Positions 42,900 to 61,945 are shown, counted from the stretch's first letter. The stretch is 64,000 nt of DNA from Escherichia coli (GCF_048403405.1 NZ_CP183136.1); one strand, 5' to 3'. The notes: generated by a model not told the origin, from the letters alone. Numbers and translations: made by a program.

Positions 42900-43468
42900 T
42901 GTCTGTAGCCCTCCTTATCGTGATCAGGATGATGGTTTTCATTCTAATGGTGTAGTAGTTTCACGTCACGCGCACGTGCATATTCTTCGAAAGCTTCGGC
43001 GTTAGCCGGTCAACCAGGGGGTTGAGGCCCAACCGTACGAGATCGTACGCTAAGTTCATTTTTTGAGCAGAAGAGGTGAGTAAAGAAAACGAGGGTTTTG
43101 TTTACTCTTCCCGTCAATGCCAGTAGCCATGCGGTTTCAGGGACTTTCAGTGTTAATAAACTCGGTAATCAAATCAACGTAAACCTGCCTAACAACGCCA
43201 CGACTTTATTGACTTAAAATCATATAGTTAGCTTCTTAGCGTACGTTTCCGCTCCATTGGGCTTCAAACCCCACACCCAATGACATGAGAAAAGCTGGAT
43301 CTGATTCTCAAAATGCTGGGATACCCATCGAGATGGAGAACTCAGTCAATGTTCCATTCTTTCTGAAATATGTGTGGGGACACTGATCTGTCGGGAGCCG
43401 GATGCGGTAGTTCCGCAGGTCCGGTTCTGAGGAGGGGCCCGTCCGGGCAACCGGCGGGTCTACTCACC

Positions 43469-52560: not shown

Positions 52561-52870
52561 TGTCGCCGGGCTCCTCTTTTTACTGCGCCGGCTGACGCGG
52601 CGCGGCATAAACGCTGCCTGTGGTCAGTGTCCCGCGTCCGGTGGGCACGGGACGGGCGCTTTTACCGCTCCCGGCTGGCGTCGGTGACAGTGTACGCCAG
52701 CCTGTCGCCCTTTTCTGATGAACGCCCTTCAAGCCGCTTTCGCGGCATAGCCTTGCCGTCAGAAAGACGACGGCTGCGGTATTCCACGGTCGGCCTGACC
52801 CGTTACCGGACGCGGTGAACAGCCCACAGGCAGCGGGGAACGGGCGCCACAGGGGCGCCCTCCCGATGCT
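52555..52870 (+). repeat. About 320-bp leading-region repeat, family 2, copy 1
   Basis: Near-identical to 53855..54185; GC-rich; ends at the start codon of the downstream gene. Confidence 0.8.
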
Positions 52871-52873
52871 CCT

Positions 52874-53815
52874 GTGAGGATAATTCCCATGCCAAACTGG
52901 TGCTCGAATCGTATGTATTTTTCTGGTGAACCGGCACAGATCGCTGAGATTAAACGACTGGCCAGCGGTGCAGTCACACCGCTTTATCGCCGCGCCACAA
53001 ATGAAGGTATTCAGCTGTTTCTGGCCGGAAGTGCCGGACTTCTGCAGATCACTGAAAATATCCGCTCTGAGCAGTGCCCCGGAGTGACGGCTGCCGGACG
53101 TGGTGCTGTATCACTGGAAAATATCGCGTTCACCCGCTGGCTGACACACCTGCAGAACGGTGTACTGCTGGATGAGCAAAACTGCCTGATGCTGCATGAA
53201 CTCTGGCTGCAGAGCGGTACTGGACAGCGTCGCTGGGAAGGGTTACCGGATGATGTCAGGGAAACTATCACTGTGCATTTCACCGCAAAAAGAGGTGACT
53301 GGTGTGACATCTGGGGTAACGAGGATGTATCGGTGTGGTGGAACCGTCTGTGTGACAACGTACTGCCGGAAAAAACCATGCCGTTTGACCTGCTGACGGT
53401 TTTGCCGACCCGCCTGGATATTGAAGTGAATGGCTTTAACGGCGGTGTTCTGAACGGTGTTCCTTCTGCATATCACTGGTATACAGAACGGTATGGCGTG
53501 AAGTGGCCTTGTGGGTATGACCTGAATATCAGCAGTCAGGGGGAAAACTTCATTCAGGTGGATTTCGACACGCCGTGGTGTCAGCCGGAAAGCGACGTTG
53601 TTGCAGAATTAAGCCGCCGTTTCGGCTGCACGCTGGAGCACTGGTACGCCGAACAGGGCTGCAATTTCTGTGGCTGGCAGTTGTATGAGCGCGGAGAGCT
53701 TGTTGATGTGCTGTGGGGGGAACTGGAATGGTCTTCCCCGACAGATGACGATGAGCTGCCGGAAGTCACCGGACCTGCGTGGATAGTCGACAATGTGACG
53801 CATTATGGCGGATGA
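52874..53815 (+). CDS. Hypothetical leading-region protein (313 aa)
   Basis: Long ORF bracketed by the family-2 repeats; no family recognised. Confidence 0.6.
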   Translation: MRIIPMPNWCSNRMYFSGEPAQIAEIKRLASGAVTPLYRRATNEGIQLFLAGSAGLLQITENIRSEQCPGVTAAGRGAVSLENIAFTRWLTHLQNGVLLDEQNCLMLHELWLQSGTGQRRWEGLPDDVRETITVHFTAKRGDWCDIWGNEDVSVWWNRLCDNVLPEKTMPFDLLTVLPTRLDIEVNGFNGGVLNGVPSAYHWYTERYGVKWPCGYDLNISSQGENFIQVDFDTPWCQPESDVVAELSRRFGCTLEHWYAEQGCNFCGWQLYERGELVDVLWGELEWSSPTDDDELPEVTGPAWIVDNVTHYGG

Positions 53816-53854
53816 AGTATGACGGAGACGGGCGGGCAACCGCCCGTTTCTTTT

Positions 53855-54185
53855 CCGACAAAGGATGTCGCCGTGCTCCTCTTTTTACTGCGCCGGCTGA
53901 CGCGGCGCGGCATAAACGCTGCCTGTGGTCAGTGTCCCGCGTCCGGCGGGCACGGGGCGGGCGCTTTTACCGCTCCCGGCTGGCGTCGGTGACAGTGTAC
54001 GCCAGCCCGTCGCCCTTTTCTGATGAACGCCCTTCAAGCCGCTTTCGCGGCATAACCTTGCCGTCAAAAAGACGACGGCTGCGGTATTCCACGGTCGGCC
54101 TGACCCGTTACCGGACGCGGTGAACAGCCCACAGGCAGCGGGGAACGGGCACCACAGGGGTGCCCTCCCGGTGCCCTCTGTAAGA
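53855..54185 (+). repeat. About 320-bp leading-region repeat, family 2, copy 2
   Basis: Near-identical to 52555..52870; abuts the methyltransferase start. Confidence 0.8.
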
Positions 54186-54198
54186 GAAGGAGTTTCGT

Positions 54199-54882
54199 AT
54201 GTCCCGTTTTGTCCTCGGTAACTGCATCGATGTTATGGCCCGTATTCCTGATAACGCCATTGATTTCATCCTCACCGACCCGCCATATCTCGTCGGTTTC
54301 CGTGACCGTTCCGGGCGCACCATCGCCGGCGATAAAACCGATGAGTGGCTGCAACCGGCCTGTAATGAAATGTTCCGCGTGCTGAAAAAAGACGCGTTAA
54401 TGGTGAGCTTCTACGGCTGGAACCGCGTCGATCGCTTTATGGCCGCCTGGAAAAATGCGGGATTCAGCGTTGTTGGTCACCTGGTCTTCACCAAAAACTA
54501 TACATCGAAGGCCGCATATGTGGGCTATCGCCACGAATGCGCCTACATCCTGGCAAAAGGCCGTCCACGTCTGCCACAAAACCCGCTGCCGGACGTGCTG
54601 GGCTGGAAATATTCGGGCAATCGCCATCACCCGACGGAAAAGCCCGTTACCAGCCTGCAACCGCTGATTGAGAGCTTCACACACCCGAACGCAATTGTGC
54701 TGGACCCGTTTGCAGGCAGCGGCTCAACCTGCGTCGCCGCCCTCCAGTCCGGACGCCGGTATATCGGTATCGAGCTGCTTGAGCAGTATCACCGTGCCGG
54801 GCAGCAACGCCTTGCCGCCGTGCAACGGGCCATGCAGCAGGGGGCCGCGAATGATAACTGGTTTATGCCGGAGGCTGCGTAA
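54199..54882 (+). CDS. Orphan DNA methyltransferase (beta-class amino-MTase, DPPY motif)
   Basis: Motifs ILTDPPY and VLDPFAGSGST; no adjacent restriction endonuclease. Confidence 0.8.
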   Translation: MSRFVLGNCIDVMARIPDNAIDFILTDPPYLVGFRDRSGRTIAGDKTDEWLQPACNEMFRVLKKDALMVSFYGWNRVDRFMAAWKNAGFSVVGHLVFTKNYTSKAAYVGYRHECAYILAKGRPRLPQNPLPDVLGWKYSGNRHHPTEKPVTSLQPLIESFTHPNAIVLDPFAGSGSTCVAALQSGRRYIGIELLEQYHRAGQQRLAAVQRAMQQGAANDNWFMPEAA

Positions 54883-55597: not shown

Positions 55598-56374
55598 ATG
55601 AACGAAAACACAACGCTGAACGCACTGATTTGTCGCCACGCCCGTAACCTGCTGCTGGCGCAGGGCTGGCCGGAAGAGACGGATGTTGACCAGCGAAATC
55701 CGAACCATCCGGGCTGGATCAGCATTTACGTGCGGCTGGATGCGCCCCGGCTGGCGACGTTACTTATCAACCGTCACGGCGGCGTACTGCCGCCGGTCCT
55801 GGCGTCTGCCATGCAAAAACTGACCGGAACCGTGGCGGAACTTGTACTGTCCGGCAGCCAGTGGCAGGCGCTGCCGGTACTTCCGGCAGACGGAACGCAG
55901 GTGTTTTTCCCGTATGCCGGTGAATGGCTGACGGAGGAAGAAATCAGGGCAGTTCTTGATGCGGTGCGCAATGCAGTACGAAGCATCTGTTACCAGGTGG
56001 CAGACGATGCGCGGCGTATCCGGGCGGCGCTGACCACCACCGGTCAGACGTTGCTGACCCGGCAGACGCGCCGCTTTCGTCTGGTTGTGAAGGAAAGCGA
56101 TTACCCCTGCTGGCTTGATGAAGATGACGAAAATCTGCCCGTGGTGCTCGATGCCATTCTGAACCGTGGCGCCCGTTTTTCCTCTGTGGAAATGTACCTG
56201 GTCTGTGAGTGTGTGGAGCATATCCTGGCCAGTGGTCTGGTCTGTGATGTGCTGCGTATACCGGATGAACCGTCCCGTCGCTGGTTTGACAGGGATATTC
56301 TGCGGGAGGTTGTTCTGGAGGCACGGGATGAAATCCGCAGCATGGCGGATGCACTGGCGAAAATCAGGGGCTGA
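55598..56374 (+). CDS. Hypothetical protein (258 aa)
   Basis: Long ORF in the leading region. Confidence 0.55.
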
Positions 56375-56379
56375 TGATG

Positions 56380-56790
56380 GCGGGGAAAATCCCCGCCTTT
56401 TTCCTGCCGGTCCCCGGACAGAGCACAAAGGAAGTCGCCGCCGGCTCCGCTTTACCCGGCCATGCGGGGCATGGCCTTGTGGGGGTTCAGTTATGTGGCC
56501 TCAGCGTCGTGTGCGGGCTGTGCCGTGCCTCCATCGTAGCCGGGCTTCTGCGGGCGGGTTGCAAGGTAAGGTGAACCGCTGCGGTCACCCGGTCCCTCCT
56601 TCCCGTCTGCCGTGATTTTCCGGTCGTTCACCCGCTCAGATTTCGCGGTCTCACCCTCCAACTCCCGCCAGCCGTGTGCGTCAGGCTGCGGCTTCCCTTG
56701 CGCCCTTGCAACCCTGCAGGCCCGGCAAAGATGGAGGCACGGCACCGCCCGGTGTCGCGGAATATGTGAACAACGGAGGAAAACATCATG
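56380..56790 (+). promoter_or_regulatory. Structured GC-rich intergenic region upstream of the klcA homologue
   Basis: Long-range inverted repeats (tgccgtgcctccatc at 56519.. pairs with gatggaggcacggca at 56730..; ttgcaagg / ccttgcaa). Confidence 0.5.
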
Positions 56791-57213
56791 CAATATGCGA
56801 AACCTGTCACTCTGAACGTTGAAGAGTGTGACCGTCTCTCCTTTCTGCCTTACCTGTTTGGCAACGATTTTCTGTATGCCGAGGCGTATGTGTACGCGCT
56901 GGCGCAAAAAATGATGCCGGAATATCAGGGAGGCTTCTGGCATTTCATCCGCCTGCCGGACGGTGGCGGTTACATGATGCCGGATGGCGACCGTTTTCAT
57001 CTGGTCAACGGTGAAAACTGGTTTGACCGCACTGTGAGTGCTGATGCCGCAGGTATCATCCTGACTTCCCTTGTGATTAACCGCCAGTTGTGGCTGTACC
57101 ACGACAGCGGGGATGCGGGACTGACACACCTTTACCGGATGCGCGATGCGCAGTTGTGGCGTCACATCGAATTTCACCCCGAATGCAATGCGATTTACGC
57201 GGCACTGGACTGA
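56788..57213 (+). CDS. klcA: KlcA/ArdB-family anti-restriction protein homologue
   Basis: 141 aa, resembles KlcA/ArdB from recall (LSFLPYLFG...[15 protein letters not shown]...[12 protein letters not shown]). Confidence 0.7.
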
Positions 57214-57259: not shown

Positions 57260-57679
57260 ATGTACTGTACTGTTAAAGAAATTATCCGCGAAGTGCTGGA
57301 TACAGACGTGCCGGACAGTGAATGCGTTTTTGCCGTGGTGCTGACCCGTGGGGATGTGCGTCACATAGCCCAGGACTGGAGTCTGACAGACGATGAGCTG
57401 GAAACCGTCATGCAGCGGCTGGACGATGCCTTTGAGCATGGTGCTGATGTCAGCATTGTTCACGACGTTGTTTGTGAACTGATGGAAGAAAAGCGCGCCA
57501 GCCGTCAGGTGACAGTCCCGGCGGTGATGCTGGAAAAAGTGATGGCGCTGGCAGGCAGTGAAATGAAGCGCCTGTATGCCGTCGGGAGTGAGAACGGGGG
57601 CGACGGTGACGCATTTGTCAGGGAAGAACGTGAGATTATGCGGGTGATGCGTCAGGCGCTGGACGGGGAGAATGGGTAA
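57260..57679 (+). CDS. Hypothetical protein, paralogue of 55118..55552
   Basis: RBS aaggagacgag; shared RQVTVPA motif. Confidence 0.55.
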   Translation: MYCTVKEIIREVLDTDVPDSECVFAVVLTRGDVRHIAQDWSLTDDELETVMQRLDDAFEHGADVSIVHDVVCELMEEKRASRQVTVPAVMLEKVMALAGSEMKRLYAVGSENGGDGDAFVREEREIMRVMRQALDGENG

Positions 57680-58065: not shown

Positions 58066-58603
58066 TCCTGTTTATGCCTTTTCCGGGCGTCCCCCTGGCG
58101 GGGCGGGCTGTCGTGAACGGAGCCAGCGGAGCTGTCTCCGCCCTGGCGGGCTTCCATCCCTGACGCAAAACCCCGGGTTTGCAGCGACCGGAACGGTCGC
58201 GCCACCCCTGTCGCGCCGTGGCCTGCGCTCCCGGCATCCCGGCAAAAAGACGCCGGGATGTAAGGAGCAACGCCGTTTCGCAAACCGCGCTTCACGTCGT
58301 TGCAGCGGGTCCCTGCTCATTGCCTGCCGGGTGCCACACACCCGTATGAGTCCCTGTCGCCGGGGGCTGATACAGCCACAACCTGCCGCACTGACTGTCC
58401 AGGGTAAATGAACAGCCCACAAAATTTTTTACCCAAAACCCGGTAAAAAATTTTGCGTTCTGCCCAGGACAGGTGCGTCAGGCCGTGGCAGTGATGCCCC
58501 TTGCGGCGAAGGTTCTCAAACGGGTGAAGTTCATACCACAGGGAATACAGCAGCAGGTTCCCGCGAAACGTCAAAACCGCGGCTCCCGAAACTCAACGGG
58601 TGA
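58066..58603 (+). repeat. Frpo-like leading-region repeat, copy B
   Basis: Near-identical to copy C at 61376..61908 and similar to copy A. Confidence 0.8.
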
Positions 58604-58837
58604 TGTTCTTTAAAAATCAGGATTTATTTCAGGCTCCGGCAATACGCATTTATGTGTTCTGTCAGTCATCCGGCTGGCAGGTAATGAAAACGCAGGAACA
58701 GAAGGAGGAAAACACCGGAAAGCGTCAGATGCAGATATGAAAAAAAGCAGGTCAGGGACCTGCTTAATCCACGCCGTAAGAATTGTGCGACCAATTTTGA
58801 CGGCATTGTTAACCAATTTGTCATAAGGAATCCATTT

Positions 58838-59068
58838 ATGACTGTAAGCATTGTTTCACCTTCCGCAGCGGCTGTAAAGCCCCGCCGTCATCCCCGTTTC
58901 AGACGCGAAGACATCCCCGCGCCGGAACTTGACCCCGTGCTGAAAGCCTTCGGGCGACACATTGCCCGGAGTTTTCGCCGGGGGCGTGGTGTACACATCC
59001 CCGCCATGAAAAACACGGCCTTCGGGCAGGTGCTCCGCACACTCGAACTGAAACGCGCTTTTAACTGA
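58838..59068 (+). CDS. Hypothetical basic protein (76 aa)
   Basis: ORF downstream of Frpo copy B. Confidence 0.4.
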   Translation: MTVSIVSPSAAAVKPRRHPRFRREDIPAPELDPVLKAFGRHIARSFRRGRGVHIPAMKNTAFGQVLRTLELKRAFN

Positions 59069-61375: not shown

Positions 61376-61908
61376 TGCTTATGCCTTTTCCGGGCGTCCC
61401 CCTGGCGGGGCGGGCTGTCGTGAACGGAGCCAGCGGAGCTGTCTCCGCCCTGGCGGGCTTCCATCCCTGACGCAAAAACCCGGGTTTGCAGCGACCGGAA
61501 CGGTCGCGCCACCCTTGTCGCGCCGTGGCCTGCGCTCCCGGCATCCCGGCAAAAGACGCCGGGATGTAAGGAGCAACGCCGTTTCGCAAACCGCGCTTCA
61601 CGTCGTTGCGGCGGGTCCCTGCCCGTTGTTCTGTCCGGTGCCATTCACCTGTTTAAGCCCCTGTCGCCGGGGGCATAGACAGCCACAACCTGCCGCACTG
61701 ACTGTCCAGGGTAAATGAACAGCCCACAAAATTTTTTACCCAAAACCCGGTAAAAAATTTTGCGTTCTGCCCAGGACAGGTGCGTCAGGCCGTGGCAGTG
61801 ATGCCCCATGCGGCGAAGGTTCTCAAACAGGTGATGGTGAATACCGGAGGGAACAAAAGGCAGGTCCCCGCAAAACGTCAAAACCGCGGCTCCCGAAACT
61901 CAACAGAT
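61376..61908 (+). repeat. Frpo-like leading-region repeat, copy C, upstream of ssb
   Basis: Near-identical to copy B; ends about 40 bp before the ssb start. Confidence 0.8.
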
Positions 61909-61945
61909 GATGGGGGCTGAAAACATCAACAGAAGGAGACACATC

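Follow-up and report, generated by a model that had tools for sequence, protein, structure and literature searches.

The locus raises the question of what an apparently empty spacer of 413 bp (56375-56787), lying between an ORF for a yffB-like protein of 258 aa (55598..56374) and the ORF of a klcA/ardB-type anti-restriction gene (56788..57213), contributes to the Escherichia coli plasmid that carries it. We propose that it contains a long hairpin, formed in the strand that is transferred during conjugation, and that this hairpin is very probably the class 2 ssDNA promoter (ssp2) of the F-like leading region. The element itself is already known, having been published in 2025-2026 as a class 2 promoter and roadblock. 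The term window is used here for the whole stretch of 64,000 nucleotides that was analyzed, and all coordinates are those of the window.

A leading-region hairpin upstream of klcA

The region is 100% identical to the E. coli plasmid pPA45B (IncFIA/FIB/FIC, MOBF), and no fewer than 5,000 plasmid records contain it with 80-100% identity, 4,371 conjugative plasmids being among those listed. Its gene order runs from ParAB, a DNA methylase, DUF1380 and the yffB-like gene through the hairpin to klcA and a second DUF1380 gene, followed by ssb, psiB, hok, a DUF932 gene and an SLT transglycosylase, which is how the leading regions of F and pESBL (an IncI1 plasmid) are also arranged. Judged by this gene order, the window represents the leading region of an F-like plasmid, with oriT beyond its right end. 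In F the minus strand carries the motif GGGGTGTGGTGCTTT, which we take to be the oriT nic-region motif, at a position to the right of the leading region. Hence the minus strand is the transferred strand (T-strand), and it is the template for all of the plus-strand leading genes, klcA included. The 141-aa klcA/ardB ORF matches the Pfam family Antirestrict PF03230 (2.8e-26) as well as the PDB entries for KlcA (2kmg, 2.7e-18) and ArdB (2wj9, 2.2e-8), and the orthologous gene is annotated as 'antirestriction protein' in pPA45B, F and pESBL. The NCBIfam search gave no family for this ORF or for the neighboring ORFs at 55598-56371 and 57260-57676. The parts of the unit are as follows.

56379..56397, plus strand: terminator-like hairpin GGCGGGGAAAATCCCCGCC followed by TTTTT, from the promoter/terminator scan, at the end of the yffB-like gene
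56425..56508, minus strand: conserved flank module, located 3' of the hairpin when the transferred strand is read
56514..56566, minus strand: distal arm of the main hairpin, the 3' arm on the transferred strand, with a putative non-template role
56533-56538, minus-strand reading: predicted -10, TACGAT, in the distal arm
56559-56564, minus-strand reading: predicted -35, TTGCAA, in the distal arm
56567..56703, minus strand: apical domain, branched, imperfectly paired and G-rich on the transferred strand
56602-56623: 22-mer used as search seed, CCCGTCTGCCGTGATTTTCCGG, within the apical domain
56704..56751, minus strand: proximal arm, the 5' arm on the transferred strand, putative promoter template, contiguous with klcA
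56739..56787, plus strand: predicted transcript leader, unstructured, with the Shine-Dalgarno sequence GGAGG at 56775-56779
56788..57213, plus strand: klcA/ardB-type anti-restriction gene, 141 aa, from the ORF and its Pfam and PDB matches

The terminator-like hairpin at 56379-56397 is outside the promoter and marks where transcription from upstream would end. At the other end of the unit, klcA starts 37 nt beyond the hairpin, and the transferred strand has no appreciable structure at 56752-56800 (-1.1 kcal/mol).

The repeat search places the main arms of the hairpin at 56514-56545 and 56720-56751 (32 nt, 91% complementary, 174 nt apart), with a nested pair inside them consisting of GGGTTGCAAGG at 56556-56566 and CCTTGCAACCC at 56704-56714 (11 nt, 100%). 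A first-pass annotation of this DNA, made from the sequence alone, had described inverted-repeat arms here together with nested pairs and a hairpin of roughly 230 nt. The arms are real, with tgccgtgcctccatc (56521-56535) and gatggaggcacggca (56730-56744) both falling inside the computed arms, the nesting is borne out by the perfect 11-nt pair, and the computed span (56514-56751) is 238 nt. It had also called for both strands to be folded as ssDNA, and both strands of the 248-nt hairpin prove to be stable, the minus strand at -76.3 kcal/mol (z = -6.91) and the plus strand at -71.6 kcal/mol (z = -6.69), with none of 200 shuffles matching this stability. The folds of the 411-nt spacer are at -109.6 kcal/mol (z = -5.68) and -103.7 kcal/mol (z = -4.67). 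No Rfam family was found over the hairpin even at a permissive threshold, at which a match to PrrB/RsmZ at 56300-56405 is at chance level (E = 0.95).

Only 10 inverted repeats in the 64-kb window have arms of 20 nt or more that are separated by no more than 400 nt, and the repeat upstream of klcA ranks second among them in length. The longest is at 43017-43272 (38-nt arms, 76% complementary, 180 nt apart), outside the leading region, in intergenic DNA flanked by a hypothetical gene and an adhesin-regulator gene.

Conservation and identity of the element

The spacer is 90.5% identical by BLAST to the yffB-yfgB spacer of F over its whole 413 bp, and alignment with F by MAFFT gives a mean column identity of 95% over a 441-bp stretch. 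A four-way alignment that includes F and both copies from pESBL, which are located upstream of klcA and of ardA, is continuous from ~56428 to ~56771. The predicted stabilities of the two hairpins are -76.3 kcal/mol for the window and -80.2 kcal/mol for F. In addition, the primers for ssp2/yffB given in the preprint 10.64898/2026.01.09.698686 map in yffB, just upstream of the F spacer. Queries with Frpo1 and Frpo2 of F match the window at 641-1168, 58106-58605 and 61413-61945, and a query with ssp3 of F matches 52575-52878 and 53880-54193 only; neither type of query hits 56425-56787, which matches only itself. The first-pass annotation was right in stating that the hairpin is not a copy of either repeat family, and its suggestion of a third and divergent type of ssDNA promoter, one that drives the anti-restriction gene, is supported, since the element is an orthologue of F ssp2 and of the klcA and ardA hairpins of pESBL. 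What it had left unspecified is the functional strand, which is the minus strand.

Class 2 ssDNA promoters were defined by Wen et al. (NAR 2025, PMC12672017) on the klcA and ardA hairpins of pESBL. In that work donors were eliminated, RNA-seq was performed on fresh transconjugants, and start sites in pESBL were mapped by 5' RACE. According to the same paper, class 2 has no sequence relationship with either class 1 (Frpo/ssi) or class 3 (the M.EcoGIX promoter) and is conserved in F, where the operon of the klcA homologue is induced early as judged by RNA-seq. The F element is named ssp2 in the text of the preprint mentioned above (10.64898/2026.01.09.698686), where it controls yfgB, which encodes an ArdB homologue. 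There it is reported that complementary-strand synthesis halts exactly at the end of the ssp2 stem, that the stall is independent of transcription (rifampicin has no effect) and is relieved by UvrD, that it doubles the PsiB output from the downstream Frpo2, and that deletion of ssp2 lowers transfer into restriction-proficient strains. Early induction, start sites, roadblock and UvrD dependence are all results of others on F and pESBL and would extend to the window by analogy. The structure, homology, strand, gene association, covariation and lack of a predicted duplex promoter come from our own analysis.

The gene association is seen in relatives that were found with the 22-nt apical seed, at 9 loci in species genomes, several of which are evidently plasmid contigs binned into unrelated MAGs, and at no fewer than 120 loci in metagenomes, these being close relatives. 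Among the matches listed, all 122 scorable relatives have klcA (95) or ardA (27) as the downstream gene, in one orientation, and the distant relatives on Klebsiella and Enterobacter plasmids also precede klcA. A distant class 2-like hairpin on the Erwinia persicina plasmid pEP1 (NZ_CP022726.1 93534-93729), which is 89% identical to the 'Frpo* 3' of Samuel et al., precedes a DNA methylase, and the class is thus tied to anti-restriction functions generally and not to one gene family.

Close relatives say little about pairing, as RNAalifold on 74 unique sequences finds the stems to be almost invariant, with only 1 of 62 pairs changed on both sides, and this alignment is uninformative on structure. 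A stronger test of covariation used lower-stem constructs from 11 lineages, including the candidates of Samuel et al. and plasmid relatives, and across 6 representative lineages the identity of the arms to those of the window falls from 84% to 51%. In these constructs, which were trimmed by each sequence's own fold, a procedure that leans towards pairing, 88.7% of the cells are paired compared with 34-38% after a shift of the partners by 1-3 columns, both sides have changed in 18 of 44 pairs compared with 2-7 in the shifted controls, and the observed values are reached in none of 500 shuffles. When arms are swapped between lineages, native pairs have a mean of -45.4 kcal/mol and cross-lineage chimeras -29.3 kcal/mol, with the native partner the best in 11 of 12 cases. 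The first-pass annotation had staked its reading on pairing being conserved across homologous plasmids, and it is, with compensatory changes in the Klebsiella, Enterobacter and Erwinia relatives.

The two strands of the hairpin are not equivalent. In all 74 variants the minus strand gives the more stable fold of the two, by a mean of 8.2 kcal/mol, and the stem cells read in the minus-strand orientation include 15 G.T and 4 A.C. This asymmetry is suggestive of the minus strand as the functional one, although the sequences are related and it may partly reflect base composition.

The apical domain is near-invariant among the aligned relatives, some of which have an alternative apical allele. A sub-hairpin within this domain (alignment columns 108-135, window ~56622-56649) has a second allele in about ten relatives, in which GGGGACGGACGCG-TTTT-CGCGGACGGCC replaces GGGTGAGACCGCGAAATCTGAGCGGGTGAAC, and one covarying pair, U-A to G-C, suggests that the sub-hairpin is also maintained. 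Four metagenome loci (L061, L086, L103, L116) have unrelated sequence in place of the distal arm and the flank module. They retain klcA together with the proximal arm and the apical domain, but their hairpin is broken. These loci could be used as natural loss-of-structure controls.

The predicted promoter, its alleles and competing explanations

The distal arm reads CCTTGCAACCCGCCCGCAGAAGCCCGGCTACGATGGAGGCACGGCAC on the minus strand, 5' to 3'. In the 74 unique variants five of the six positions of the -10, T-A-[C/A]-G-A-T, are invariant, and five of the six template-arm columns that face it are variable, as would be expected if sigma reads the non-template strand and a bubble aids opening. In the window the facing bases are AAAGAT in the plus-strand reading (56727-56732), and their partial mismatch gives a small pre-opened bubble. 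Every lineage has the pattern TTGnnn ... TAnnnT, and the order of -35, -10 and stem base would direct transcription out of the hairpin towards klcA. The assignments of -35, -10 and +1 are our own predictions from the sequence, made apart from the published box positions, and they would place the start near A56739, 7 nt past the -10, with a leader of 49 nt. No sigma-70 duplex promoter is predicted on either strand of 56300-56850 by a consensus scan, which is no measure of activity.

We envision the following sequence of events. During conjugation the minus strand of the window would enter the recipient as single-stranded DNA, and bases 56751 to 56514, about 12 kb behind the nick, would fold into the hairpin of ~238 nt. 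Its lower stem would imitate a double-stranded sigma-70 promoter, in which the distal arm provides the non-template-like TTGCAA (-35) and TACGAT (-10), the proximal arm acts as the template, and the mismatches facing the -10 serve as a small bubble. Host RNA polymerase would initiate near 56739 and exit at the base of the hairpin into klcA/ardB, and transcription of ssDNA from the hairpin would mean that the anti-restriction protein is made before the complementary strand exists. The stable, G+C-rich hairpin would also block the complementary-strand polymerase that comes from the low-coordinate side, with UvrD opening the ssp2 block, and once the DNA is double-stranded the hairpin would be gone and the promoter off. 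We infer that the window allele behaves in the same way as its relatives in F and pESBL, that the start is exactly where we have placed it, and that these hexamers are the ones read by RNA polymerase.

The version of the hairpin in the window, here termed allele A, differs from allele B of F and pESBL in the -35/spacer segment, and this difference is the sole new detail of our analysis. In allele B GGCGGGGATGCA is paired with TGCATCCCCGCC and there is a bulge of 4-5 nt on the template arm, while the pair described above in allele A, GGGTTGCAAGG with CCTTGCAACCC, is accompanied by an extra 5-6 nt on the non-template-like arm. As a consequence of where the extra bases lie, TTGCAT and TAAGAT of allele B are separated by 15 nt on the non-template-like arm, and TTGCAA and TACGAT of allele A by 20 nt on that arm and by 15 nt on the template arm. 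The spacing is 15 nt in the Klebsiella, Enterobacter and Erwinia relatives and in the Frpo* sequences as well, and neither the 20 nt of the window nor the 15 nt of all other lineages examined is the canonical 17. Alleles A and B agree in the length of the helix that separates the boxes, about 15 rungs, and in the location of an asymmetric internal loop, which separates the -35 helix from the 7-bp helix GCCCGGC. The distal arm of allele A is present in 1,283 plasmid records (1,200 conjugative) compared with 4,624 for the F-type arm, and among the matches listed allele A accounts for 37 of the 122 metagenomic instances, always with klcA next.

Natural A/B chimeras make up 7 of the 122 instances among the matches listed, and these fold equally well (mean -74.6 kcal/mol), from which it follows that matching of the alleles is not required; indeed, the template arm of the window pairs even better with the non-template arm of F. 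Co-adaptation of the arm alleles was considered and was dropped, as the chimeras fold as well as matched pairs do.

Might the hairpin of allele A be structural only, for example a roadblock or a priming signal, with the promoter lost when the loop shifted to the other arm? Such a loss is suggested by the distance of 20 nt between -35 and -10 on the arm that sigma would read, in place of the 15 nt of other lineages, and with a stability so near that of F the roadblock would survive loss of the promoter. Nevertheless, we consider this improbable, since allele A is common and is always found before klcA, the -10, the TTG and the 15-rung helix between the boxes are all kept, and klcA, for which no other promoter is predicted, would be left with none.

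Still less probable is a role at the RNA level, in which the repeat would be a leader, attenuator or terminator in a plus-strand read-through transcript from the upstream gene. The plus strand does fold well, but this is true of any inverted repeat, and the terminator-like hairpin with its T-run at 56379-56397 precedes the element. Moreover, the Rfam search found no family over the hairpin, both the greater stability of the minus strand in 74 of 74 variants and the excess of G.T over A.C argue for the other strand, and the klcA and ardA copies of the hairpin unit in pESBL follow unrelated upstream genes. Published deletion and 5' RACE data likewise put the start site within the class 2 hairpins. 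We give almost no credence to a miniature transposable element or IS remnant, which two 32-nt arms 174 nt apart superficially resemble in having terminal inverted repeats, or to a chance repeat, because the element is single copy in the window, is directly before an anti-restriction gene in one orientation in all 122 scorable relatives listed, has no target duplication seen at the arm ends and covaries along the whole of its arms, including internal helices that transposon ends do not need, and because no shuffle out of 200 folds as well.

With the class 2 promoter as the preferred reading, the flank module (56425-56508, 85 nt) is of interest in that it is as conserved as the hairpin, being highly conserved in 108 unique relatives. 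It accompanies the hairpin in both the klcA and the ardA copies, and the homology between these two copies in pESBL begins here. The module includes a small hairpin at 56458-56476, GGCCATGC-GGG-GCATGGCC, in which the sequence of the stem differs and the pairing is kept in the Klebsiella, Erwinia and Enterobacter relatives, and at its outer end is the motif AAGGA[A/T]GTC, or GAC[A/T]TCCTT in the minus-strand reading. Folded as a whole, the 56425-56508 segment is not significantly structured (z = -0.53). We found no description of it in the main text of the literature on class 2 ssDNA promoters. The flank might, for example, be where a helicase, SSB or the primosome engages.

It is conceivable, though in our estimation rather unlikely, that allele A is a functionally distinct version of ssp2 and that the flank at 56425-56508 is an undescribed functional part of the unit. 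The moved loop, and with it the change from 15 to 20 nt in the distance between -10 and -35, could tune the strength of the promoter, that of the roadblock, or both, and if this is true the natural A/B recombinants would give intermediate settings. For both of these activities, the strength to be expected of allele A would be that suggested by homology with F and pESBL.

The physiological importance of ssDNA promoters is that they allow anti-restriction, anti-SOS and methylase genes to be expressed within the first minutes after entry, before the DNA is double-stranded, and ssp2 additionally sets the duration of this period of early expression, which bears on the establishment of resistance plasmids in restriction-proficient hosts. 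For annotation, the value of the assignment is that an 'empty' spacer of 413 bp becomes a defined regulatory element. The allele difference, the association with klcA and ardA, and the covariation represent modest comparative support for the published work, the picture of which is unchanged.

Comparison with other ssDNA promoters

The leading region holds all three classes of ssDNA promoter, with one class 2, two class 3 and two class 1 elements. Three class 1 Frpo copies are present in the window (84-93% identical to Frpo1/Frpo2 of F), of which two are in the leading region. The other, at 641-1168, is ~55 kb away, near the gene for a group II intron reverse transcriptase and fimbrial genes, and from this setting it looks like an orphan outside any leading region. 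The class 1 element at 58106-58605 is closely followed, on its downstream side, by a minus-strand match to the Rfam family AS-pc01 (RF02875, antisense to pHK01_035) at 58742-58843, which scores 79.4 bits against a gathering score of 79. The two class 3 (M.EcoGIX-type, ssp3) copies are 95-96% identical to the F copy. That at 53880-54193 is just upstream of a DNA methylase ORF (54199..54882) and that at 52575-52878 precedes a different short region. A 'hypothetical protein' of pPA45B, at 53819-54130 in the window (ORF 53779..54123), overlies the second class 3 hairpin and is probably not a real gene.

The principle of a promoter formed by a DNA hairpin is also known from the early promoters of coliphage N4, which need single-stranded character and SSB. 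The N4 hairpins are of 5-7 bp, are extruded from supercoiled duplex and are read by the virion RNA polymerase, and, unlike the element in the window, they do not mimic a sigma-70 promoter with -35 and -10.

Closer in kind are sequences listed by Samuel et al. (Nature 2024, PMC11541004) in Supplementary Table 2, where they are computational candidates grouped with Frpo and are given no separate class. One of them, Frpo' 4, which is carried by a Klebsiella grimontii plasmid at 100% identity, is a clear class 2 homologue. The GCCCGGC-TAnnnT / TTGnnn architecture is also seen in Frpo* 1 and Frpo* 3, which are more distant than Frpo' 4. The arms of these sequences are only 51-79% identical to those of the window. 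The class 3 element ssp3 is, like the hairpin upstream of klcA, a leading-region hairpin promoter for an anti-restriction function, in this case an M.EcoGIX-type methyltransferase, and is unrelated in sequence; according to the text of the preprint it is of similar strength and has no roadblock activity (10.64898/2026.01.09.698686).

Class 1 comprises Frpo1/ssiD and Frpo2 of F and ssi1-3 of ColIb-P9 (Masai and Arai 1997; Bates et al. 1999; Couturier et al. 2023, PMC9849209). In principle it resembles what is proposed for the window element, in that the transferred strand of a leading region folds into an extended, imperfect hairpin and thereby rebuilds -35 and -10. Class 1 is active only on single-stranded DNA, with transcription heading for oriT and establishment genes as its targets, and the same would apply to the window element. 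The class 1 and window elements have no detectable sequence similarity, however, and Frpo drives operons of the ssb/psiB/ygeA type, unlike the element upstream of klcA. They also differ with regard to replication, as the text of the preprint has the Frpo transcripts priming complementary-strand synthesis, whereas ssp2 blocks it (10.64898/2026.01.09.698686). The closest known systems are F ssp2 and the class 2 promoters of pESBL, which occupy the same locus as the window element, between the yffB-like gene and klcA/ardB. The hairpin is built in the same way in all of them, with the same strand transferred and with the outer stem, the predicted -10 and the apical domain in common.
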